55,277 bases of DNA from Promethearchaeota archaeon (GTDB lineage Archaea; Asgardarchaeota; Lokiarchaeia; Sigyniarchaeales; SOKP01). The stretch spans positions 1 through 55,277 of the forward strand of contig JAHLWP010000030.1 of NCBI GenBank assembly GCA_019057865.1, written 5' to 3'. A program made the translations under genes and the position numbers. Under the pieces are notes generated by a model. The model had not been told where the DNA came from, did not search any database, and saw nothing but the letters and a program-made list of their open reading frames with translations. Positions 3,305 through 17,042 of the stretch are shown in pieces. Position 1 is the stretch's first letter; every line of letters starts with the position of its first letter.

Positions 3305-3323
3305 TATAAAAAGGTTTTATTTC
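3305..3323 (-). promoter_or_regulatory. putative BRE-TATA promoter of SCP2 copy 1
   Basis: Minus strand reads GAAATAAAACCTTTTTATA; a 16-bp core is shared with the upstream region of SCP2 copy 2. Confidence 0.45.
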
Positions 3324-3560
3324 GTTCTGTTCAATTTGATATTAAATTAGTTTTATATTTTAGATTAGTAAATATTCTTTAATTAAACAAACCATTACTT
3401 ACATGGAATATAAATATTAAAACTTGTACTTGAAGATTACTATAATAAGATTGAAAAAATAAGTATTTTAAAATATATACAAAGTACTGATTATAAAAAA
3501 GAGATAAAAAAAATAATAAGATTAGTCTTTTAACAGAAATATCTTCTCTAAAAGATTTTA

Positions 3561-3992
3561 TTAATCTTCAAGAAGATCTTCGAGGGCTTCACCAGCAAGC
3601 TCTACAATCTCTTGGAAGGCCATAGCATCTTGAAGATTACCTTCTACAGTGATATCACCAGCCATATAGGCGCTAGTTGCGTCAACTTCACCCATTAAGA
3701 TGCCAGCACCAGTTTCAAGAGTTGAAGACATTGTAAATGAAGGATTGTCTACATCTCCCTCACCATAATCGAGCTTTCCCTCCTTTACTGTAAGCCAATA
3801 TTTAGCTTCTTTATCTGTAATGATCATTTGAATTGCAATATCCATATCTTCGAGTTCTTCTTTAAGATCCTCATTTTCTTGAGAAACCTGCTTGATAAAT
3901 TCGTAATATTTCAGAGTGTCAGCAGGTGCAGCACCGCTAGCTCCTTTATCCATAATTGCTTTTATTTCCTTTAATAAAGATTCATCAACCAT
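3561..3992 (-). CDS. SCP2 sterol/lipid-binding domain protein (tandem paralogue)
   Basis: C-terminal half nearly identical to 2775..3209; ATG at 3992. Confidence 0.8.
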   Translation of the reverse strand: MVDESLLKEIKAIMDKGASGAAPADTLKYYEFIKQVSQENEDLKEELEDMDIAIQMIITDKEAKYWLTVKEGKLDYGEGDVDNPSFTMSSTLETGAGILMGEVDATSAYMAGDITVEGNLQDAMAFQEIVELAGEALEDLLED

Positions 3993-4076
3993 TTTAATTT
4001 TCAACCTATTTTTTTATTTTTATTCCAATTTTGAAAATTATATACATTAAATAGTGATTATAATAACAATGGAAAA

Positions 4077-4095
4077 TTTAAAAAGGTTTTATTTC
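4077..4095 (-). promoter_or_regulatory. putative BRE-TATA promoter of SCP2 copy 2
   Basis: Minus strand reads GAAATAAAACCTTTTTAAA, matching 3305-3323. Confidence 0.45.
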
Positions 4096-4195
4096 TCTTT
4101 TTTTAGGATTACACTAGTAAAGCAAAAGTTTTTATTGAAGTTTGCTCATCAAATCAAATCAAAGTGAGTCAACGTTGAATAAATCATTATGATAA

Positions 4196-4305
4196 TGGCG
4201 CCCACAGCGGGATTTGAACCCACGTCGTTCTCCTCAATTAATATCTATCTATTAATGATCAGGAGTGACAGTCCCGAATGCTAGACCAGGCTACACTATG
4301 TGGGC
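4196..4305 (-). tRNA. tRNA-Asp(GTC) with 32-nt intron (4228-4259) at about position 43/44; CCA encoded
   Basis: Acceptor GCCCACA/TGTGGGC, anticodon arm CGGGA-CTGTCAC-TCCTG, T arm GTGGG-TTCAAAT-CCCGC. The intron forms a CTCC/GGAG central helix with 3-nt bulges TGA and AAC. Confidence 0.92.
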
Positions 4306-4490
4306 ATTTTATTAGAAAGAAAAAATCTAATGTAAGAAGAGAAAGAATCGAGACTTTAAAAATTTTTTTCTAACCAGCTTGTTAACATATATATATAGAA
4401 AAATTTAAATTGATAGAAGGCGATGTAGATAATAAGAATATCTTTGGTATAAGATATAGTATAATTTAATCTTTAATAGATATAGATTTT

Positions 4491-4922
4491 ATGCTCGACT
4501 CAAAGAAGTTCAATTCTGTAATTCATGAATTGGAAAATAAGGAAGAAGAATTTATCGCCATTTTAGATAAAATTATAAAAATGGGAGTAAATTTCTTACA
4601 GAATACAGAAGAGTTGAGAGAAGAGATAATGGATTATGATTACATTTATCAAATTCTAGTCTCTGATATTAATTTTAAGTTTTGGTTGAAAGTTTCAAGA
4701 GGATCGATTATGTATAAGAGAGGTATAAATCCAAATGCTACTTTTAGAGTAAGCTATACTAAAGATATTATGATTAAAATCCTCAAACGTGAAATGTATG
4801 GATCTGAAGCTTATATGAAAGGAATAATCAAGGTAGACGGAGATCTTACTCAAGGTTTGCGATATATAAAAGTCTTCAGATTGCTCTTGAAATATATCAA
4901 AAACAATTTTAAAAATGAGTAA
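4491..4922 (+). CDS. SCP2 domain protein (divergent)
   Basis: EAYMKGIIKVDGDL SCP2-like motif. Confidence 0.7.
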   Translation: MLDSKKFNSVIHELENKEEEFIAILDKIIKMGVNFLQNTEELREEIMDYDYIYQILVSDINFKFWLKVSRGSIMYKRGINPNATFRVSYTKDIMIKILKREMYGSEAYMKGIIKVDGDLTQGLRYIKVFRLLLKYIKNNFKNE

Positions 4923-5091
4923 TTCTGTGGAGATTTCCTAATTTTCTTCTATTAAGCTTAATTTTTTTTTAGTTTATTCATTATTTTATTTACAATAAGA
5001 TTTTTTAGAAATAATGAATGAGGATATTTGTAACCTATTAATTTTTTTATTGAAAATTCCATAGTTTATAAACAACAAAAATATAAAATAT

Positions 5092-5184
5092 GGGCCTGTA
5101 ATCTAGTCTGGATAACACTATTCGTCCAGAAAGGGTGCCCGGCTTCGGACTGGGATGTCGCAGGTTCGAATCCTGCCAGGCCCG
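5092..5184 (+). tRNA. tRNA-Arg(TCG) with 18-nt D-loop intron (5114-5131); CCA not encoded
   Basis: Acceptor GGGCCTG/CAGGCCC, anticodon arm CCCGG-CTTCGGA-CTGGG, T arm GCAGG-TTCGAAT-CCTGC. BHB helix CTGG/CCAG with bulges ATA and AAA. Confidence 0.9.
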
Positions 5185-5503
5185 ATAAATTAAACAAATT
5201 AATCGGTAAGATCCTTTCTCAATCCAAATTATATTTCGTTTATTAATTCTACTCTTAAATTTTTTTTGTACAAACAGATATTTTGATAAAAAAGATCATT
5301 TTTTGATACAAAATTATATATTTATCTTTTTATTTGTATAAAATAGTTAGTATATAATATTATTATAAGATTTATAAAAATTTGATACTCTGAGACGAAC
5401 ATACTCTTTAATAATGAGTTTTAAATATAATAACGTTATTACATTTTATGTACAAAAAAGAATTTTTGTACAAAATAATATAGTCAAAAAAGGGGTTTAA
5501 AAA

Positions 5504-6322
5504 ATGATAAGTTTGGAAGATAATTTTCAAAATTTGGATAAATCTTCTCTGATCTTTCAGATGGAAAGTTTCAGTGTCTCTGAGATAAATCCAGAAGGAA
5601 AACATGAAGTTATTTTCCATAAAGGCATGGCTATTGAACATATTCAAAAGCTCATTGATTTATATAAAGAGAGAATTATAGAAAAAAAACAAGGTTATAT
5701 CAAGGATTTAATCGATAACTTTACAATATATATCCACTTTTTTGACAAGAAACAGGGAGATATACTAGTAATAATTTATATAGATGATAAAGAAAATCTG
5801 ATGAATTATACAAAACTATATCATTTTTCAAAAAGTTTATTTCAGCGAATTTGCTCAAATATTTCAAGTTTAGAAATAGAAAAGATTTGCGGGACAATAA
5901 TTAAGATTCCAAAAGTTGAAGGAATATTGGCAATATTTATTGTTGATGAAGCAGGATTCTTATATTTTTCAAAAGTTTGCAAAGATGAGAAGTGTATGTC
6001 ACAAAACAAAGTACAAATTGCGGGTTTCATATCTGCGATTTTATGTTTTTCGCAAGATTATATTGGTGGGAAGGAATCTGGATTTAAGCTTGAAGCAATC
6101 AACGTCGGGAAAGCAAACTTTTATATGAATATTAAAAATGATGTAATTTTTGCTTATTTAGTCGAAAAGGAAAAAAAAACAGATAAGATGCAAAAATATG
6201 TTGAATTAATATCAGCAAAATTTGTAGATAAGTATTATGAGACTCATGTAAAAGATTTTAATGGAGATCTTACGCCATTTCATGAATTTGAAAATGTCAT
6301 TGAGCAATATTTTATAATCTAA
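5504..6322 (+). CDS. longin/roadblock-like domain protein
   Basis: C-terminal IFIVDEAGFLYF...IAGFISAI...KFVDKY...FNGDLTPF pattern typical of Asgard longin-like proteins. Confidence 0.6.
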   Translation: MISLEDNFQNLDKSSLIFQMESFSVSEINPEGKHEVIFHKGMAIEHIQKLIDLYKERIIEKKQGYIKDLIDNFTIYIHFFDKKQGDILVIIYIDDKENLMNYTKLYHFSKSLFQRICSNISSLEIEKICGTIIKIPKVEGILAIFIVDEAGFLYFSKVCKDEKCMSQNKVQIAGFISAILCFSQDYIGGKESGFKLEAINVGKANFYMNIKNDVIFAYLVEKEKKTDKMQKYVELISAKFVDKYYETHVKDFNGDLTPFHEFENVIEQYFII

Positions 6323-6472: not shown

Positions 6473-6826
6473 ATGACTATTTGTTTAGATGTTGACCTAG
6501 TTTTGGATAATATCCTAAAGGAATTAGGTTCAGGAGTCTATTTTTTATTAATTACATCTGAAAATGGCGCAATAATAAAATCTTACATTAGTGATGAATT
6601 TAATAAATCCTCAATAGGATTAAATATGTCTCAATTATATGAGTTAGCTGAAGAAATTACCTCAGAAATAGGAATTCATGTTCCAGACTTTAATATAATT
6701 CATTCAGACAATTTTTATATCTTATCAATTAAAATCTTAGAAAAAATTGTTATCATATTAATGGAAGATCAGATTGATTTTAGCAATGTCTTTAACGTAA
6801 TTAATGCATGTATAAAAACAGACTAA
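6473..6826 (+). CDS. roadblock/LC7-like domain protein
   Basis: 117 aa with LLITSENGAIIKS roadblock-type pattern. Confidence 0.6.
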   Translation: MTICLDVDLVLDNILKELGSGVYFLLITSENGAIIKSYISDEFNKSSIGLNMSQLYELAEEITSEIGIHVPDFNIIHSDNFYILSIKILEKIVIILMEDQIDFSNVFNVINACIKTD

Positions 6827-6950
6827 ATATATAAACTAAATGCGATTCTTCTCCATTAACTCAAGAAATTCGTGCTAATATTATTTATAATCAAAATATT
6901 TATATTCTATTAACTAATTTGATATAAAATACATATTAAGGTATGATAAA

Positions 6951-7433
6951 ATGAAATATGAAAAAAATCAATATAATGATAGTGTCTCAATATGTACATT
7001 CATAATCGCTGGTGCTTTTTTGTGGTGGGGTATTACTAGCTTTATCCCATGGGATAAGTGGTCATGGTGGGGCTTTATTGCGATTGGTATTGGTGCGGCT
7101 ATTTTATCTAGCCAAATTGTAGCAATAAACAATAGGAGTAAATTACGGAGGGTAGTTTTGCAAGAATTCCAGACAAATCCTGATGCATCAATAGAAGATG
7201 TTAGCAGGAGTACTGGAATTTCAAGAAAGGATGTTCAATCGATTGTTTTAGATCTGAAAGCATCAGGGCAATTAATTGGTAAATTTTCAACAAAAACAGG
7301 GCAAATAAAACATGTATTAATTCAAAAAGAACCTGTTAGCTCAGAAGAAAGGGGTAAATATTGTTATAATTGTGGAACACCTATAAGTAAAGAATCAGCG
7401 CAATTTTGTGCTTATTGTGGTGCTAAAATATAA
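6951..7433 (+). CDS. membrane protein with HTH-like segment and C-terminal double zinc ribbon
   Basis: Two TM helices, SIEDVSRSTGISRKDV HTH-like segment, CYNCG...CAYCG. Confidence 0.75.
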   Translation: MKYEKNQYNDSVSICTFIIAGAFLWWGITSFIPWDKWSWWGFIAIGIGAAILSSQIVAINNRSKLRRVVLQEFQTNPDASIEDVSRSTGISRKDVQSIVLDLKASGQLIGKFSTKTGQIKHVLIQKEPVSSEERGKYCYNCGTPISKESAQFCAYCGAKI

Positions 7434-7472
7434 ATCTTTTTTTTATTTTTCCTAATTTTAAAAGGCTATTTT

Positions 7473-7541
7473 TTAATGGAAGATCAGATTGATTTTAGCA
7501 ATGTCTTTAACATAATTAATGCATATATAAAAACAAACTGA
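7473..7541 (+). pseudogene. duplicated 3' fragment of the roadblock gene
   Basis: Encodes LMEDQIDFSNVFNIINAYIKTN*, versus LMEDQIDFSNVFNVINACIKTD* at the end of 6473..6826. Confidence 0.85.
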
Positions 7542-7556
7542 TGAAAACTTGACTTT

Positions 7557-7628
7557 ATATTTATATTCTATTAACTAATAATATTTATATTCTATTAACT
7601 AATGATATTTATATTTTATTAACTATTA
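7557..7628 (+). repeat. 3 x 24-bp tandem repeat of a TATA-containing segment
   Basis: ATATTTATATTCTATTAACTAAT(A/G) twice plus one diverged unit; a single copy occurs at 6896-6919. Confidence 0.85.
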
Positions 7629-7659
7629 TCATATAAAATCCATATTAAGGTATGATAAA

Positions 7660-8103
7660 ATGAAATATATAAGAAATCAATTTATAATCGCTGGTTCTTT
7701 TTTGTGGTGGGGTATTACTCTCTTGCAGTGGTCATGGTCGGGATTTTTAGTGATTGGCATTGGTGTTATTATTTTATCTAGCCAAATTGTTGCGATAGCT
7801 AATAGGAGTAAATTACGGAGAGTAGTTTTGCAAGAATTCCAAACAAATCCTGATGCATCAATAGAAGATGTCAGTATGAGAACTGGAATTTCTAGAAAGG
7901 ATGTTCAAGCAATTATTCTAGATCTGAAAGCATCAGGGCAATTAATTGGTAAATTTTCAACAAAAACAGGGCAAATAAAACATGTATCAATTCAAAAAGA
8001 ACTTGTTAGCTCAGAAGAAGGGCGTAAATATTGTCATTATTGTGGAACACCTATAAGTAAAGAATCAGCACAATACTGTGCCTATTGTGGTGCTAAAATA
8101 TAA
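7660..8103 (+). CDS. paralogue of 6951..7433 (membrane, HTH-like, zinc ribbon)
   Basis: Near-identical C-terminal two-thirds; short in-frame deletions near the N-terminus. Confidence 0.75.
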   Translation: MKYIRNQFIIAGSFLWWGITLLQWSWSGFLVIGIGVIILSSQIVAIANRSKLRRVVLQEFQTNPDASIEDVSMRTGISRKDVQAIILDLKASGQLIGKFSTKTGQIKHVSIQKELVSSEEGRKYCHYCGTPISKESAQYCAYCGAKI

Positions 8104-8249
8104 ATTTTATTTATATTTTTCTTAATTTTGAAAAGCAATTTATTTAGTCTAGGTTCCTTAAAGCTGTTTAGATGATTTAGGAGTTTTATAAATCAAAACT
8201 GTAAAATTAAAATATCAATGGTATATAAAAATAAATGGTGATTATAATT

Positions 8250-9507: not shown

Positions 9508-10320
9508 ATGCGATTGAGTATTGTATCTACTCTTAACGAATCCAAACACAATCAAGAAGAAATAATTAAAAAATTCTCTGCTGTATGTAATTTTTTAAAG
9601 CCATTAGATTATGATGGAGTTGAATTAAGTTTATTAGAACCAGAAAAAATTGATGTTAAAAAGATAGATGAAATTAAAGATTCTTATGAAATGGAAATAC
9701 CAGCACTGGGAACAGGGAATACTTTTATTCGGTTTGGTTATTCGCTAGGTCATATTGATGAATCAATGAGGAGAAAAGCAATTGAAAGAGTTGAGAAATA
9801 TGTTGAATTTGCCCGTGAAGTACAATCAAAAGTTATTATTGGATTAATTAGGGGACGTTATAGTTTTGAAAGTAGTCAAAAAAAAGAGAAAATAAATATT
9901 AAATCATCGTTAAAAGAATGTTGTAGGTTAGCAGAAAATAACAATGTAGAATTATTATTCGAACCTATAAATCGATTTGAGAGTGATTCTTATAATACAA
10001 TCTCAGAATCAATAGAATTAATAAAAGAGATAGGTTCTAATAACTTAAGATTATTAGTTGATTCTTATCACATTTATTTGGAAGAGGATCCTGGTTTTAT
10101 TTGGGATTATTTAAAAGAGATTGCTCATTATGTTTCTCATATTCATTTAGCTGATTGTACACGTAGAGCTCCTGGTACAGGACATTTTGATTTTAGAATT
10201 TTTTTAAATATTTTTAAAAATGCAGGTTATAATGGGTTTGCATCAATTGAAACTATTATGAAACCCTCATTTGAGGAAGTCGCTAGAGAATCCTCTGAAT
10301 ATCTAAGTTTAATTCTATAG
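9508..10320 (+). CDS. iolO: sugar epimerase, 5-keto-L-gluconate epimerase-like (IolO)
   Basis: TIM-barrel epimerase motifs EPINRFE, DSYH and HLADCTRRAPGTGHFDF; cluster context. Confidence 0.75.
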   Translation: MRLSIVSTLNESKHNQEEIIKKFSAVCNFLKPLDYDGVELSLLEPEKIDVKKIDEIKDSYEMEIPALGTGNTFIRFGYSLGHIDESMRRKAIERVEKYVEFAREVQSKVIIGLIRGRYSFESSQKKEKINIKSSLKECCRLAENNNVELLFEPINRFESDSYNTISESIELIKEIGSNNLRLLVDSYHIYLEEDPGFIWDYLKEIAHYVSHIHLADCTRRAPGTGHFDFRIFLNIFKNAGYNGFASIETIMKPSFEEVARESSEYLSLIL

Positions 10321-10325
10321 AATAT

Positions 10326-11533
10326 TTAACTTATTTTAATAGAAATCTTACAATTTTCTTTATCAGTTTGCAAGAGTTTGAGATGTTCAGGTACTTCATT
10401 AAGGGAGATTTCTTTTGTGATTATTGGAGTTAAATCCATTCCAGTTGCCATACAATTTATCACATTTGGAAAATTACCATGCCCCGAATGACCTTGAGAT
10501 CCTACGATGCGAGCTCTCCTTACTTGGAAGTATTCACCACAAACAGGCATTTTTTGTTCTGTTCTAGCAACAATAACCACCGTACTATTAACTGATTTAC
10601 ATTCCCATATTGCATTTTGTATATCATCTGTAACAATATCAGGTAATCCCGTAGCTTCAAGATATAGGGCAGCTCCCTCATTATCAGTATATAGTTTTGT
10701 TGCTTCAACAAAATCTTCTTTTAAAGGGTTGATCACATAATCAGCACCCAATTTTTTCGCTAACGATGCTCGATTTTCTTCTGGTTCTGAGACAATACAT
10801 ATAGCAGCTCCAGCGGTTTTTAAAATTTTAACTGCTGCTAAACCAATAGGACCAGCTCCCAAAATAACCACATTTTCACCTGGTCGAATTCCGCCCCCTC
10901 TTTCTATAACGGCATTGTAAGCAACTGAAGTTGGTTCTACTAAACTACCAATTTTAAAAATATCATCATATTTTTGTTCTAATTTTTTCAAACTCCAGCA
11001 TAATTTTGCTGGTACAGCAATGTATTCAGCATATGCACCATCAATAGAAAAACCAATTTCCTGTAATCGCTCACAATGGTTTGGATAGCCATCACAACAA
11101 GGTTTACATTCGCCACACCAAACCATTTCTTCTACAGTAACCGGTTCTCCTACTTCATAAAGTTTACCAGTTCTTTTATTAATTGCTTGACTACCAACTT
11201 CAACAATTTCACCTGCAAATTCATGTCCAAGGGTGACAGGGAAAGCTGTTAAACCAGGATAATAAATGTATCCATCATCATATGCTTGAGCCATATGTAC
11301 ATCAGAACCGCATATTATGGTCTTGAAAGTTTTCTTTCAAGAATTCCACATCTTTTGACCTTAATTAAAACCTCTTTAGGATTGGGTTTAGGCTTTTCCT
11401 TATCAATAACTTTAACAAAGGGAAATTTCCATACTTGTGACCCTAGATATGTTAATTTTTCATCAATATCCTTTGGTCCAGGTTTAAAGGATGGTTTTGG
11501 TTCCCATTTTGCGGATATTTCTATGGCTTTCAT
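10326..11533 (-). CDS. iolM: scyllo-inosose 3-dehydrogenase (Zn-dependent MDR), two exons: 11533-11344 and 11314-10326; 392 aa after splicing
   Basis: Exons of 190 and 989 nt join to read KRCG-I-CGSDVHMAQ. GHE, CGECKPC...C and GAGPIG motifs are present; strong resemblance to Thermotoga IolM. Confidence 0.85.
11315..11343 (-). other. predicted 29-nt BHB mRNA intron in iolM
   Basis: Transcript reads AU-GUGG-AA|U-UCUUGAAAG-AAAA-CUUUCAAGA-CCAU-AA|U-AU: 4-bp central helix, two 3-nt bulges and a 9-bp hairpin. Confidence 0.85.
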
Positions 11534-11681
11534 TTCTTTTTTATATCAACTCCATAATCAATTATGGTAATTAATAATATACTTCTTTTAAGTTAAACCT
11601 TTATAGCATAGTAATCCAACAAATACTTAAAAAAAATAGGAATTAGAATATAAAATTACCAAAAATAGAGATAATAGTATT

Positions 11682-14531
11682 TTAAATATTCCTATAATAA
11701 TCTCTAAACTTATTTATCAAAGAAACAGCATTTTTTCCATTGTCATTTAAGTAGTATTTAGTAGGGTTAGCCTTAGATCTTGTTCCACGAATAATTCCTA
11801 CATATTGTCTCATTACATCATATCTCCTACTAAAGAAACTTATTATAGATGACTTATCCTTATATTCTAAATATTCCTTTAAACTGATATTGGTAGCATC
11901 ACGTCCTGACTTTGATATCTCATAAATTGCAATTAAAAACTTCATAAAACCATCAGTATCTAAAGTGGGTTTAATTAAAGGGTTTCTAATTGCAGAATCT
12001 ACACAATCAATAGGCGCAAATTCTCTGGTAACACGATTATAATCGTTAAAGACTTGTCTTACATTATTTTTATGATCATAAATTTCATTCAATAAAGGAA
12101 TAAATTTATTATGATGAAGAATTCTATGACAATTTGAACAAATATATCCTCCCTCTTCTTTTTCTATGATTCGGATAATTTCAGAGCATGGAAGATAGTA
12201 TACCTTACTAATGTTAACTGTTTTCGTTTCTTCATTTTTATGATGATAAGTGAATGCGGGTAAATGTTTGCTTATTCTGAATTCTCCACAAGTATGACAA
12301 AATTCTCCATAAAAATATTCTATAATATATCTTTTTTTTAGATATCTAGCAATTGCATCTCTTATCCCTGCTTTGGTGTTTGGGGTTAATCTTGTAGTCT
12401 CACGAAAATTGTCTACTGAAATCCTAATAAGTGCATGAATTAGCTCAGGGGGATAAGAAAAGATATCTTTCCAATTTATAATATATTTAAAATATCCGTA
12501 ATATTTATCTTCTAAAATACGATGATGATTTCTACATATAAGAACCACGTGTTCCGATTCCATTAACTTAATTATCAATTCTAAGAAATGTGGATTAGAC
12601 AAATTTTTAGTAAATAGCTCGTATAGCTTTGAAGCAGTAAAATTATTATCCTTCTCACCAGAAGTGTGGTGAAATTCTAATGCTGTTAGTCTTGAAATAT
12701 CAGTATTTATAATTAATCCTTCTTTTTGGCATTGGGGACACTTACTTTTCCCGTTTTTAAAATATTTACCATTATAAATATTTTTTATGGCAAATAATTT
12801 TAATTTACTTCCAATAATTCTTCGTAAATCTTTTTCTTTTTTCATTCTTTGTTTGTCTGTAAGACTTTCTTCTTTTGCTCGATATGCTCTAGGTGGAAAA
12901 AGATCAAAGTATTTTTCTCTTAAAAAATCGTAAATTTCTCTTATAGAAAAAACAAAACGATATTTTTGAAGTAAATTAATACCATTTTCTTTTAAAAAGT
13001 CAACTAAAGGTTTTATATATACACGTGCCCCAATCTTTTTATGGACCTTACTTGTATTGGCCAATAATTTAATTATTTCAGCTAAATCGGAAAAGAATTT
13101 GATAAATACATCTCGATATTGAGTTACCATATTACGTAGTGAATTAATATCTTTTTTAAAATTGTCTCCAAAATATTCTTTAAAAAATTCTGAAAAAATA
13201 TTCTCCTCTAGTTTTAAAATTAGTTCGGATGTTTCAATCTCTGTATTCTTTATCAATTTGAAAAAATATAAAGAAATAATCAGTCTAATCCTTTTAAACC
13301 CATATATTGCTAATTCCATTCTTGGATATAACTGTTCAAAATATGTTTTGTAGTACCTATTGACACTACTAGGTATTATGTTAGCCAATTTAGCTATCTG
13401 TCTTGTACTAATTTTGGGTACATTTTTGTCTATAAGAGCTACGGTGTAAATGATCGTGCTGGCAATTACTTTAAGATTTACGTTTTTAGGAATATAGAAT
13501 TCATTATTTTCTGCCCTTGAAATGAAATCATCTAATATTTCTATGGATTTTGACCAAATAAACTCTTTTTGGTCTGTTGTACCATCGATTAAATCATATA
13601 ACTTTTTTAAATTATTAATTAATTTCTGTTTAAAATGAGGTATCGAGATAGAAAGTACCATCGTGGTTTCTTTATCTTTTATTGCAACTTGTATATCTTC
13701 TCTTTTTAATTCTCTGCATAAACCAGCTTCTAAAAATTCATGATAAGCTGAAAAAAGCTCAAATGCAGATATCCCTTGCGTTAATATTTCGGGGGCTTTT
13801 CCCAATAGTAAAGTAAAAGTTCCGACGTGGAGGATCTTATCGTATTCTTCTTTAAGTATTGAAAGAGATCTATTTTGTATTAGAGATGCGCTTCCTTTTT
13901 TATCTCTTGAAACTTGAATTTCATTTAAATACTCTTTTAACCAAATCTGGATAAAATTTCGTACTTCATCGGAAAATGGACGCAATTCTTCGGGATTATG
14001 AAATATTTCGGATTTTTTGCGGAGATTTTGCAGGAAATTGGTATATTCCCCTGCAATTTTTTTTAACCCCGAACGCAACTTCTCATGAGGCTTTTTTGAG
14101 GATTTCTCATTTTGAAGGGATTTTCTCTGCTTTCTACTCAGTAATTTCATGTAGCTCCTTGATAATCCGTCCATATAATTTGAAACAATTTGGGCCCCTC
14201 TTCCTAGAGGAGCACAATACATCCAACCACTAATGAAAACCTTAAGACTATTAGGGGCTTTTATTTTGATTAAGTTTATCACACTTTCTGGAGGGAGGGC
14301 TGAGACATCAAATAAGCAAGCATTTATTGCTTGGATAAAACTTCCGATAAACTCATCAACGAAAATCAAGGAAATTTTGTGTTTCGAACATTTTGGATAT
14401 TTTTGAAATCCAAGGAAACCGAATTTCAAAGGTTTGACCTTTTCAAGATGCTTGCATCCAAAATGTGGACAAATTGCGATCCGATCTTCTTCAACCGTTT
14501 TTCTGCTTACTTGGTCGTGTCTCTCGATCAT
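11682..14531 (-). CDS. 949-aa multidomain protein: N-terminal Zn finger, TFIIB-like cyclin/HTH segment, two HNH-like nuclease domains, C-terminal wHTH-like region
   Basis: CPHFGC...CSKH; IASTIIY...ISTRQIAKLANI...VNRYYK; CPQC...LEFHH...ICRNHH; CHTC...FTYHH...ICSNCH. Confidence 0.65.
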   Translation of the reverse strand: MIERHDQVSRKTVEEDRIAICPHFGCKHLEKVKPLKFGFLGFQKYPKCSKHKISLIFVDEFIGSFIQAINACLFDVSALPPESVINLIKIKAPNSLKVFISGWMYCAPLGRGAQIVSNYMDGLSRSYMKLLSRKQRKSLQNEKSSKKPHEKLRSGLKKIAGEYTNFLQNLRKKSEIFHNPEELRPFSDEVRNFIQIWLKEYLNEIQVSRDKKGSASLIQNRSLSILKEEYDKILHVGTFTLLLGKAPEILTQGISAFELFSAYHEFLEAGLCRELKREDIQVAIKDKETTMVLSISIPHFKQKLINNLKKLYDLIDGTTDQKEFIWSKSIEILDDFISRAENNEFYIPKNVNLKVIASTIIYTVALIDKNVPKISTRQIAKLANIIPSSVNRYYKTYFEQLYPRMELAIYGFKRIRLIISLYFFKLIKNTEIETSELILKLEENIFSEFFKEYFGDNFKKDINSLRNMVTQYRDVFIKFFSDLAEIIKLLANTSKVHKKIGARVYIKPLVDFLKENGINLLQKYRFVFSIREIYDFLREKYFDLFPPRAYRAKEESLTDKQRMKKEKDLRRIIGSKLKLFAIKNIYNGKYFKNGKSKCPQCQKEGLIINTDISRLTALEFHHTSGEKDNNFTASKLYELFTKNLSNPHFLELIIKLMESEHVVLICRNHHRILEDKYYGYFKYIINWKDIFSYPPELIHALIRISVDNFRETTRLTPNTKAGIRDAIARYLKKRYIIEYFYGEFCHTCGEFRISKHLPAFTYHHKNEETKTVNISKVYYLPCSEIIRIIEKEEGGYICSNCHRILHHNKFIPLLNEIYDHKNNVRQVFNDYNRVTREFAPIDCVDSAIRNPLIKPTLDTDGFMKFLIAIYEISKSGRDATNISLKEYLEYKDKSSIISFFSRRYDVMRQYVGIIRGTRSKANPTKYYLNDNGKNAVSLINKFRDYYRNI

Positions 14532-15196
14532 CCGGTGATTCTCACCCTTTCCTTCTTTTTCTTTGCTTCGAATTGATCCTCATCATTTAATTCGAGTAAA
14601 CTTGATAATTCTAGTTTTAGTTTGGAGTAACTCTCTTTCAGTTCTCTATAGAAATCTGAAAATAATGAAAAAAATGTACCTTGACTGCTACATAAAATAT
14701 CTGCAATTTTAATCACAACATTTAATAATCGGAAATGATGATGAATTTCAAATTCTGAAAGAACATGAAGTACTTTCCAAATTTCACCACTGAGATATTT
14801 AATCTCTTTCAAGAGGTCTATTTCAAAACGATTTGGTTGAGTTTTAACCTTTCTAAATAGAATTTTTATCTTTTTATCTACTGTCTCCTGTTCTACACCA
14901 ATCATTTCCAGTAAAGATATATATCGAGAAAATAATGAGGAGAGTTTGGATTCCCATTTCAAAATTGGGTCTTTTTTAAGGATGTTGTGGGTCTCTTGAG
15001 ATTTTGAAAATCTAAATCGAATTATAGCTTTTTTATAGTTAAGAAAGGAGCGTAATTGCCTTGAAAGTTCACTTATATGTTCAGAACCTTCAATTGAATA
15101 CCACTCAAGAAATTCCAAATCATCTTCATAATCTAAAGGGGAACTATTGCTAAAAGAATAATTAAGACCATTGAAATTATTACAACTCTTTGTCAT
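14528..15196 (-). CDS. hypothetical helical protein, coupled to the HNH gene
   Basis: 222-aa ORF with a 4-bp ATGA overlap with the 949-aa ORF. Confidence 0.65.
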   Translation of the reverse strand: MTKSCNNFNGLNYSFSNSSPLDYEDDLEFLEWYSIEGSEHISELSRQLRSFLNYKKAIIRFRFSKSQETHNILKKDPILKWESKLSSLFSRYISLLEMIGVEQETVDKKIKILFRKVKTQPNRFEIDLLKEIKYLSGEIWKVLHVLSEFEIHHHFRLLNVVIKIADILCSSQGTFFSLFSDFYRELKESYSKLKLELSSLLELNDEDQFEAKKKKERVRITG

Positions 15197-15569
15197 AATA
15201 ACATATTTTCTTCGTTATATTTAAATAAAAAAAGAGTTAGATTTTTCTAGTTATTCACACAAAAACTTGTTTGACGGCAATTTGCACTCAATTCTAAAAA
15301 ATCATTCATTTCCTTACAGATCGAATATAGATTTTTTTAGTGTTTTGTCATCAGGGATCATTTACCCTCCACAATTTAATTTTTTATATATTATTTAAAG
15401 AGATTTTATTCATAAAAACTGGATAAGTTGGAGGATTTATCTCAAAACGAGTAAAATTCTTTATAATCTTCTTTGTTTAATTTAGTTATCAAATCATCGA
15501 AAGTATGATGAAGGATGATTTCTCAATTGAACTATATTTTATTTACTAAACCATACATAGCAAATTGAA

Positions 15570-15759
15570 TCCCACATCTTTTTACTTTGATTAACACTTC
15601 ATTGGACTTAATTTGGGGTCTATCTTTATCAACAATTTTAACTGTTGGATTTCTCCAAACTTGAGAACCTAAATATGTTAATTTTCCATTAATATCTTTA
15701 GAACTGGGTTTATATTCAGGTTTGGGATCCCATACAGCCGATAATTCAACAGCTTTCAT
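15570..15759 (-). other. iolM: second (orphan or alternative) iolM exon 1
   Basis: 190 nt, the same length as exon 1A; 42/64 aa identical by manual count. Similarity ends at KRCG-I, the splice site. Confidence 0.85.
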
Positions 15760-15836: not shown

Positions 15837-17042
15837 TTATTCCTTACTTTTCTCTTTCAAGAAGAATACTATTATTAAAGCTATAACAAGCAAAATTGCT
15901 TGTATTAATAGAGCAGGCCAATAATCATTATTTATTTTGACATCTTCAAGGCTAAGAATAAATAGAATTCCTCCTATTTGCCCGACCATCATCAACATTC
16001 CAGTAGAGCTTGCTTCTGGCACAGGTTTTGTTATGTCGACAGCATATTCTAAACCCACTGGACCCGCTGAAAGTAAGCCGAATCCTAGTAGAAATCCAAA
16101 CGCAAGTAACATTGTCTCATCATGTGTGCAAGTAATTATAAATAGAGAAACTGTTGCTATAAAAAGAGATATTATTAGTAAGATTTTACGCTTTTTGTAT
16201 TTGTCTGATAATGTAGACATTATAACACATCCTACGATTCCTCCTAATAGCATTAGAGCACCTAACATTCCTGCAAAATCAGTGTCATACCCTCTCGGTT
16301 CTACTATACCTTCAATATATGTGGTAATGGTGTTAAAAATCCCTAGACCCAAGAAAAAAAGAATAAATAGCATAATGAAGTGTTTATTTGTAAACAATTT
16401 CCTTAGACCTTCAGACATTAATACTTTTTCTTCTATTACCTCTCTTGAAGGAGGAGTTGGCGGCTTATCTTTCACAAATACCACAAAAAGTATCACTGTT
16501 ATCAGGGATATAATACCATAAATAAGTAGCATTGGTAATAAATCATCTCCAGAAACAAGTATTGGAGTAATAAACATACCGAGTGCAATCCCCAGAAATT
16601 GAGAGATTAATGCAATTCCCGTAGCTGTTGTTCTTTCATTTTCAGGAAACCAATTAGCTGATAATTTTGTGACTGCGTTTAAAATAAAAGGTTGTCCTAA
16701 GCCAATTCCTATTTGAAATAACAACACAAGTAAATAATCCTCAAATGCAAAAAATCTAAGTAGACCGAAGATACCTGCAATTATAGCTCCTATTCCCGCC
16801 CCTATCCTAAACCCAAATCTATCAATCATCCAAGCTGCTAAGAAAGTTACTGGAATATATACTACCATGAAACTCATTGCCAACAAGTCTATAAAAAGTT
16901 CATCAACCTCATAAAAAGTTGCAGCAACACTTCTAACAGGAGCAAAACTTATCCATAAAATTTGCAATGATATGTTTACTAGCATAAAAAGCAATAGAAC
17001 TACCCAGCGAAATCCATAAACTTCTACATTTTCTTTACTCAT
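15837..17042 (-). CDS. MFS transporter (FLVCR/SLC49-like)
   Basis: About 12 TM helices; YGFRWVVL and ANWFPENERTTATG motifs. Confidence 0.85.
   Translation of the reverse strand: MSKENVEVYGFRWVVLLLFMLVNISLQILWISFAPVRSVAATFYEVDELFIDLLAMSFMVVYIPVTFLAAWMIDRFGFRIGAGIGAIIAGIFGLLRFFAFEDYLLVLLFQIGIGLGQPFILNAVTKLSANWFPENERTTATGIALISQFLGIALGMFITPILVSGDDLLPMLLIYGIISLITVILFVVFVKDKPPTPPSREVIEEKVLMSEGLRKLFTNKHFIMLFILFFLGLGIFNTITTYIEGIVEPRGYDTDFAGMLGALMLLGGIVGCVIMSTLSDKYKKRKILLIISLFIATVSLFIITCTHDETMLLAFGFLLGFGLLSAGPVGLEYAVDITKPVPEASSTGMLMMVGQIGGILFILSLEDVKINNDYWPALLIQAILLVIALIIVFFLKEKSKE

Follow-up and report, generated by a model that had tools for sequence, protein, structure and literature searches.

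In a contig of 55,277 nucleotides (nt) from the genome of a Lokiarchaeon (Promethearchaeota archaeon, GenBank assembly GCA_019057865.1, contig JAHLWP010000030.1; the window hereafter), the gene iolM is broken by an insertion that is likely to be a composite homing element, made up of a two-gene cassette, a spacer with a presumed promoter, a foreign 190-nt first segment of the gene (exon 1A) and a bulge-helix-bulge (BHB) mini-intron acting as a shield. The gene encodes a Zn-dependent dehydrogenase, homologues of which are named scyllo-inosose 3-dehydrogenase at NCBI, and the host, whose genome we call G000, has a G+C content of 29%. Read on the minus strand, the locus consists of a major facilitator superfamily (MFS) transporter gene, a first copy of the iolM 5′ end (exon 1B), an open reading frame (ORF) of 222 amino acids (aa), an ORF of 949 aa, exon 1A, a 29-nt hairpin and the rest of iolM (exon 2). 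An original prediction made from the sequence had given this order, and every part was found at its expected position. It had also described two intact first exons of about 66% protein identity that lose similarity at the splice site; we measured 65% (tblastn E 8e-25; 72% at the DNA level), with the likeness ending at GGRATTC, slightly beyond the proposed splice point. This 1A/1B direct repeat of 195 nt is the sole long repeat of the region, and the ORF of 1B runs on to position 15532. A near-identical 16-nt sequence, AAAAGATGTGGRATTC, is present at both ends of the insert, the boundaries of which are ambiguous by 2 nt because AT is common to both ends; repeat analysis of the region found no terminal inverted repeats linking them.

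The insertion was recognized by comparing iolM with its counterparts in 11 other genomes of the genus and in one genome from a different genus of the order. In each of these 12 relatives, the gene is a single uninterrupted, intron-free frame of about 392 aa reading ...VKRCGICGSDVHM... across the site. The nearest relative, G012, is collinear on both sides: window positions 18820-15569 are matched at 93.5% identity, the match ends exactly at the end of 1B, and it picks up again in the body of iolM. Exon 1B, which is contiguous with the native upstream DNA, is 98.4% identical in nucleotides and 100% identical in amino acids to the uninterrupted gene start of G012, as compared with 72.5% nucleotide identity for 1A and 92.9% for exon 2. 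Taken together, the intron-free relatives, the collinearity of G012 and the identities of 1B and 1A therefore mark 15569-11315 as an insertion. In G012 the sequences AAAAGATGTGGAAT and ATGTGGTTCC meet at the insertion point (AAAAGATGTGGAAT/ATGTGGTTCC), and the intron-less site of this type is AAAAGATGTGGAATATGTGGTTCC. With a second empty site in the locus L076, there are two filled/empty pairs at the exact site in collinear DNA, G000 versus G012 and L060 versus L076. The insertion is exact and lies at the codons for the zinc-ligand motif CGI/CGSD. These comparisons indicate that 1B is the displaced native piece, that 1A and the 29 nt arrived with the insert and that the site was previously intron-free. 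No donor lineage of 1A was found among the sampled genomes, the best native match reaching 77.8% nucleotide identity.

These data agree with the main points of the first of two models in the original prediction, namely a nuclease-driven mobile element that brings a promoter and a first segment of its own and rebuilds the gene, and the empty MFS-iolM site that it proposed to look for in relatives exists. Two of its details have to be changed. The element was said to have entered at an intron, which is contradicted by the 12 intron-free relatives, and to have brought only the 5′ half of the intron, when the whole 29-nt mini-intron came along.

Coordinates of the features discussed. Positions without a contig name refer to the window; the others are on further contigs of G000.
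Feature	Position	Strand	Length	Remark
MFS transporter gene	15837..17042	-		Native upstream context outside the element; Pfam MFS_1, E 2e-41
Exon 1B, orphan native 5′ segment of iolM	15570..15759	-	190 nt	Displaced by the insertion
Whole insertion, relative to empty sites	11315..15569	-	4,255 nt	
Non-coding left arm of the element	15197..15569	-	373 nt	Upstream of the 222-aa ORF
Partner ORF	14528..15196	-	222 aa	Its end and the start of the nuclease gene share 4 nt
Putative homing endonuclease ORF	11682..14531	-	949 aa	HNH-type profiles, winged helix
Spacer carried by the element	11534..11681	-	148 nt	AT-rich
Exon 1A, foreign replacement 5′ segment of iolM	11344..11533	-	190 nt	
BHB-type mini-intron	11315..11343	-	29 nt	Splits the codons for CGI/CGSD; breaks the frame in DNA
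Exon 2, native rest of iolM	10326..11314	-	328 codons	Pfam ADH_N and ADH_zinc_N
Insert in the uS12 gene, sole copy in the genome	C27:25030-25059 (L066)		30 nt	Hairpin with stop codons; flanked by Pfam S12 positions 2-54 and 56-108
Insert in the EF-2 gene, single-copy	C82:40874-40903			Insert in a conserved motif
Insert in the acetyl-CoA synthetase gene, single-copy	C82:548-579			Insert at ...WYCTAD/IGWITGHSY
Insert in a thiolase-like gene	C7:117703-117732			Similar insert
Insert in an alpha/beta hydrolase gene	C75:14727-14758			Insert 170 nt from a 640-aa LAGLIDADG_3 ORF (C75:14928-16850)

Mobility of the element is supported by an independent metagenome assembly contig from the European Nucleotide Archive, L060, which has the same layout. 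Its insert is 99.3% identical to that of the window (about 0.7% of positions differ), the left junction GGGAT/TCAATTTGC is identical, and the two copies of 1A are 96.3% identical. The DNA to the left of the insert is only about 70% identical to the window or unrelated to it, and the MFS gene upstream of the orphan 5′ segment is of another type. The L060 orphan is itself a different allele, with 70% identity to 1B over the first 156 nt and 32 of 33 nt identical over the last 33 nt. The Gly codon at the junction is GGG in both known orphans, versus GGA or GGC in all 11 native genes compared; these shared 33 nt and the GGG codon look like a short co-conversion tract. The empty site that matches L060 is L076, in which the upstream 300 nt are 98.7% identical and iolM is uninterrupted. 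Despite this upstream identity, the first 190 nt of iolM are only 77% identical between the two (L076 2726-2917 versus L060 2094-2285), so that this part of the gene is hypervariable between otherwise near-identical strains, which suggests that the segment has been replaced repeatedly. A third locus, L061, has no orphan and carries a diverged cassette (nuclease 68% identical in amino acids) immediately before an iolM gene in which the same mini-intron is present; its homology to the window element starts only at 15309. The alignments show that this recent element has reached two or more host backgrounds.

Together with the end of 1A, the 29-nt insert is predicted to fold into GUGG, a 3-nt bulge, a perfect 9-bp stem closed by an AAAA loop, and CCAU (-13.7 kcal/mol; z = -3.6, none of 200 shuffled sequences being as stable). 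It thus offers a central helix GUGG/CCAU, a 5′ bulge AAU and a predicted 9-bp inner helix. Cuts at AA/U in both bulges would remove 29 nt and restore ...KRCGICGSD... in frame, in the register of the 12 uninterrupted relatives, with AGATGTGGAATATGCGGT as the predicted junction between 1A and exon 2. The mini-intron is found in other hosts as well. Database homologues of iolM are mostly 392 aa long, and a few called as 322-332 aa come from L071/72, L073/74 and L075, where an MFS gene is followed by a first piece of 65-67 aa, a 29-30-nt insert at the same codon and the rest of the gene. These carriers are cassette-free; G000, L060 and L061 have the mini-intron together with a nuclease gene. Across the five lineages, the 9-bp stem is fully paired in every case and three of its pairs have changed on both sides (e.g. 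G-C to U-A), the loops varying in sequence and length. This is equalled by 2 of 500 shuffles, and pairing in slid controls is 40-52%. In L061, one stem change gives U.G and the loop is wholly different; L071 and L073 share derived intron features. Both parts of the gene remain open in six independent carriers, and the ratio of non-synonymous to synonymous substitution rates (dN/dS) between intron-bearing genes is 0.05-0.10 with synonymous sites saturated, as expected under strong purifying selection.

CGIC would also result if ribosomes bypassed the 29 nt during translation, with take-off at AUU and landing at AUA. We set this reading aside because the hairpin, conserved and covarying, is found again in unrelated genes that lack matched codons. 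A second hairpin insert, 30 nt long and containing an in-frame stop, was noticed in exon 2 of L061 (about 10130-10165) at RARIVG.Q/GHSGH. It combines a 7-bp outer helix with a 3-nt bulge and an 8-bp stem, and the strict 2/1 cut rule would remove 29 nt from it rather than 30.

The genome was also scanned for strict BHB hairpins whose removal joins open frames. Six of the hits, including the query, are supported by junction translations that read through conserved motifs, and contiguous Pfam profile coordinates add support for uS12, EF-2 and acetyl-CoA synthetase. The inserts share one architecture, a 4-bp helix, a 3-nt bulge and a 7-9-bp stem within 29-32 nt; those in the last four genes of the table are 30-32 nt long. 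G000 encodes two EndA paralogues, at C71:81890 and C69:38574, and one RtcB, at C75:110910, and the EndA of Asgard archaea is of the broad-specificity (alpha-beta)2 type (PMC5829648; also 10.64898/2026.10.13.758758). Removal of the 29 nt from the iolM mRNA by EndA and RtcB is very likely, because similar inserts lie in the single-copy uS12 and EF-2 genes, both enzymes are present and the EndA type is of broad specificity.

The larger ORF of the cassette encodes a putative homing endonuclease with an HNH catalytic module. The 949-aa protein begins with a conserved N-domain (aa 1-290) and a middle region; two HNH-like modules follow at about aa 597-685 and 745-805, and a winged helix (aa 857-949) forms the C terminus. 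Among the phage profiles of PHROGs it matches the HNH endonucleases phrog_2255 (E 5e-12, in two stretches) and phrog_3106 (E 2e-6). The description of the protein as a double HNH in the original prediction holds well for the second module, which matches PHROGs strongly, and less well for the first, which alone matches weakly (E 0.05); the Cys/His/Asn motif residues of both, CxxC..HH..C.NHH and CxxC..H..CxNCH, are invariant in 19-24 homologues. An AlphaFold 2 (AF2) model of the last 390 residues, with a predicted local distance difference test score (pLDDT) of 91, ends in a winged helix (VIA Z 8.9), and a DtxR-type DNA-binding Pfam family is matched by 9 of 24 relatives of the protein. A sequence search of PDB returned nothing, the ESM Atlas gave no informative look-alikes of the N-domain, and the 222-aa ORF has no match in PHROGs. 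No integrase, transposase or recombinase domain, the tyrosine and serine types included, was detected in either ORF by Pfam, PHROGs or NCBIfam. The spacer between nuclease gene and 1A presumably holds the promoter and ribosome-binding site for 1A; a GGAGTTGA motif about 20 nt upstream of the 1A ATG is kept in L060 and L061.

The nuclease belongs to a family of 343 representative clusters that is Lokiarchaeial, patchy and multicopy. Its N-domain occurs in only 5 of 54 genomes of the genus, yet four times in G000, in which six further matches to the 949-aa protein lie elsewhere. The family is modular: the first 290 residues are constant and are followed by this HNH pair, an HNH_3, a LAGLIDADG_3, an intein-type or an exonuclease module. 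At every locus with an N-domain, the nuclease gene comes after a small ORF of about 200-235 aa. We propose that these are uncharacterised modular site-specific nucleases with a constant N-domain, swappable HNH/LAGLIDADG modules and a conserved 200-aa partner, the natural targets of which may be readable from flanking duplications. On contig C87 of G000, a cassette separates an intact fucose-isomerase-like gene from a 5′-less second copy of the last 194 codons of that gene (75% identical in amino acids), which lies beyond it. In G012 (C35, L033, about 2350-2925), the fucose-isomerase-like allele has no cassette and is chimeric: it matches the element-side copy of C87 at 100% over about 400 nt, after which the sequence is orphan-like into the downstream DNA. 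We read this allele as the trace left by gene conversion, or by recombination between the copies with loss of the cassette. On contig C23, nine 5′ codons are duplicated (MFQPASLKG / MFSPASLKG) and TTAAAAGG is common to both junctions; in L063 and L064, the 3′ end of a helicase gene, 130 nt, is duplicated at 71% identity.

The above findings can be brought together in a model of homing. The nuclease would cut intron-less iolM alleles at the CGI/CGSD site, and repair of the break would copy the element from the carrier allele. If the orphan 5′ segment and exon 2 serve as homology arms, the recipient's own start would therefore be left as a new orphan at each event. The mini-intron would part the two halves of the target site and make the carrier immune; such a shield is suggested because 1A ends in the same sequence as the native left half-site and the target would be rebuilt if the 29 nt were taken away. 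We infer that it interrupts the recognition site of the nuclease, because both insert junctions coincide with the intron insertion site. In the mRNA, EndA would cut and RtcB ligate, taking out the mini-intron and restoring the frame, with the host splicing enzymes bearing the cost, and iolM would be expressed from the promoter of the element as a chimera of 1A and exon 2.

Several observations weigh against this model. Pfam (with the proteins taken whole and in pieces) and NCBIfam gave nothing significant for either cassette ORF, an HNH family included, and fold searches with two AF2 models (pLDDT 91 and 84) returned only the winged helix together with generic helical hits and missed the small HNH modules. 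In the mini-intron, the outer helix and the 3′ bulge are weak: the 3′ bulge AAU is followed by an outer helix of at most 2-3 bp, which is the relaxed HBh′ form, and the central helix is only 80% paired across the five lineages. The genome scan gave 10 hits versus 5-10 in shifted decoys, a number not above that of the controls. A uniform geometry, in which the replacement piece always lies by the 3′ end of the nuclease gene, was considered and is ruled out by C23, where the piece is on the opposite side of the cassette. At other loci (G012:C63/G000:C58, G012:C33, G012:C53, G065, G019 and G067), there was no flanking duplication or only matches of 20-30 nt. Finally, G000 and L060 differ by 8 synonymous and 15 non-synonymous changes in the nuclease gene (11682-14531 versus 3322-6171) and by 1 synonymous and 5 non-synonymous changes in exon 1A. 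This pattern points to relaxed constraint or to diversifying selection, and the non-synonymous excess means that the element may be past its active phase in these hosts.

The excess in exon 1A, together with a frame that is broken in the DNA, would also be seen if the insertion had simply killed the gene, the hairpin staying unspliced and iolM decaying as a pseudogene in its carriers. This is unlikely. Exon 2 shows the opposite pattern between G000 and L060, with 31 synonymous and 10 non-synonymous changes; both gene parts have stayed open in the six carriers under the low dN/dS given above, and the stem has been kept by compensatory changes. Moreover, a like insert lies in uS12, an indispensable gene of which the genome has a single copy.

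The insert could instead have moved as a circle, through site-specific recombination or transposition and not through repair of a break made by the nuclease, with the duplicated segment acting like an att site. The repeated 16-nt sequence at the two ends would fit such a route, a target gene rebuilt from a carried copy is typical of integrase-driven integration, and the N-domain and the 222-aa protein are without known function. We nevertheless regard it as quite unlikely: there are neither the enzyme domains nor the terminal inverted repeats searched for above, the 29 extra nt at the right junction are unexpected from a crossover in a shared core, the variable modules of the family are classic homing-nuclease folds, and the fucose-isomerase allele of G012 has a tract resembling gene conversion.

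The second model of the original prediction took the whole 4,255 nt as one nuclease-encoding BHB intron of the kind seen in archaeal rRNA genes, yielding 1B-exon 2 and 1A-exon 2 mRNAs and thus two IolM isoforms. Its in-frame join stands: the 1B donor retains GUGG and a 3-nt bulge (GA/U), and joining it (GGGA/U) to the acceptor removes 15569-11315 and gives the exact native protein, CGICGSD included, at the junction AGATGTGGGATATGCGGT. The insert boundaries are also the BHB cut positions, and 1B has kept both an intact ORF and its native upstream region. The BHB that 1B was said to be able to form with the same acceptor did not appear in a co-fold, however. The inner helix of this long form has only 2 bp and the co-fold with 1B is not a BHB (-9.2 kcal/mol, versus -15.2 kcal/mol with a BHB for 1A), the acceptor half being sequestered by the adjoining 1A hairpin. 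The orphan is moreover not a required part, because L061 has the mini-intron and a cassette without it and L071-L075 have the mini-intron without a cassette, and 1B is simply the native allele. Such an intron is very unlikely. As for a chimeric assembly of two strains with different iolM 5′ ends, G000 is a metagenome-style assembly of 87 contigs with 5% contamination, and the chance of this artefact is negligible because the same architecture and junctions were assembled independently from another sample (L060), a diverged version from a third (L061), and both flanks are collinear with G012.

The homing model has parallels in known systems. Collaborative homing of F-CphI and psbA was reportedly described by Zeng et al. 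in 2009 and by Bonocora and Shub in 2009. In the cyanophage S-PM2, the free-standing endonuclease F-CphI lies beside the intron-containing psbA gene (PMC6083498). As there, a free-standing nuclease adjoins a gene whose conserved target holds an ORF-less intron, and the intron also occurs without the nuclease in other genomes. Unlike the self-splicing group I intron of psbA, that of iolM is a 29-nt archaeal BHB intron in need of host EndA and RtcB; the host is an Asgard archaeon and not a phage, the element adds a replacement segment and leaves an orphan duplicate, and cleavage of the insertion site is here presumed. By analogy, the proposed logic is that of collaborative homing at psbA, here applied to an archaeal BHB intron and coupled with a replacement gene segment that the element carries.

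Some BHB introns of archaeal rRNA genes encode LAGLIDADG homing endonucleases, for example I-DmoI and I-PorI. Like those of archaeal 16S genes (PMC4496867), the present intron is of the BHB type, tied to a homing nuclease and set in highly conserved sequence. In the rRNA genes the nuclease lies inside the intron, whereas here it lies outside the mini-intron and the interrupted gene encodes a protein. Introns in archaeal protein genes have been regarded as almost absent, the textbook exception being cbf5 in Crenarchaeota. The BHB intron in the cbf5 pre-mRNA (PMC2738675) is likewise of the EndA type and set in a protein gene, and it has been gained and lost among relatives. It is a single isolated case with no nuclease, whereas the mini-intron of iolM is shorter, is one of a set in the genome and is tied to a mobile cassette. 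In T4-type phages, free-standing HNH and GIY-YIG endonucleases such as those of the mobE and seg genes home without introns (PMC2790892, PMC2988022). The likeness to these lies in a free-standing nuclease gene between or within host genes, in spread by break repair with co-conversion of flanks, as proposed here, and in a patchy distribution; unlike the element as modelled here, they leave no diverged duplicate of the target end and use no intron shield. Some integrase-driven elements bring along a copy of the end of a tRNA or protein gene and so make their target whole again. Here too a copy on the element rebuilds the target, with the displaced native piece left at the far end; unlike in those elements, no integrase was found, the carried copy is 72% identical and the junction holds a mini-intron in place of an identical att core. 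The parallel with tRNA-integrating elements drawn in the original prediction is thus sound as an analogy and does not extend to the enzyme or to the right junction, which is not a simple att core.

The locus offers a dated and polarised case, with filled and empty sites, in which a metabolic gene of an Asgard archaeon has acquired a BHB mini-intron along with a nuclease cassette and a spare segment of the gene. It makes three questions directly testable: mRNA splicing by EndA and RtcB in Asgard archaea, the route of intron gain, and targeting of the insertion site by the nuclease. We put forward as a serious but tentative possibility that the tiny EndA-type introns in Lokiarchaeial protein genes, those of essential genes such as uS12 and EF-2 included, may have been gained and spread by homing at the DNA level, driven by free-standing nuclease cassettes that use the intron as a shield and are able to carry replacement segments. 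If true, the archaeal lineage nearest to eukaryotes would have an active mechanism for gaining mRNA introns, and homing elements that rebuild genes would form a new class.

Some further features of the region were recorded. Between the iolM stop and a convergent AP_endonuc_2-type gene, G012 (L025, 6447-7251) and L060 (7531-8304) have about 0.8 kb, containing an HSP20 gene in L060, that is absent from the window (at 10323/10324) and from L076. A tandem duplication of about 0.7 kb (window 6758-7483 versus 7473-8153; 77-85% identical when translated) covers a 160-aa ORF (6951-7433). The window also contains two tRNA genes, at 4199-4305 on the minus strand and 5091-5185 on the plus strand, the first of which probably contains an intron because it spans 107 nt as against a model of 71 positions.

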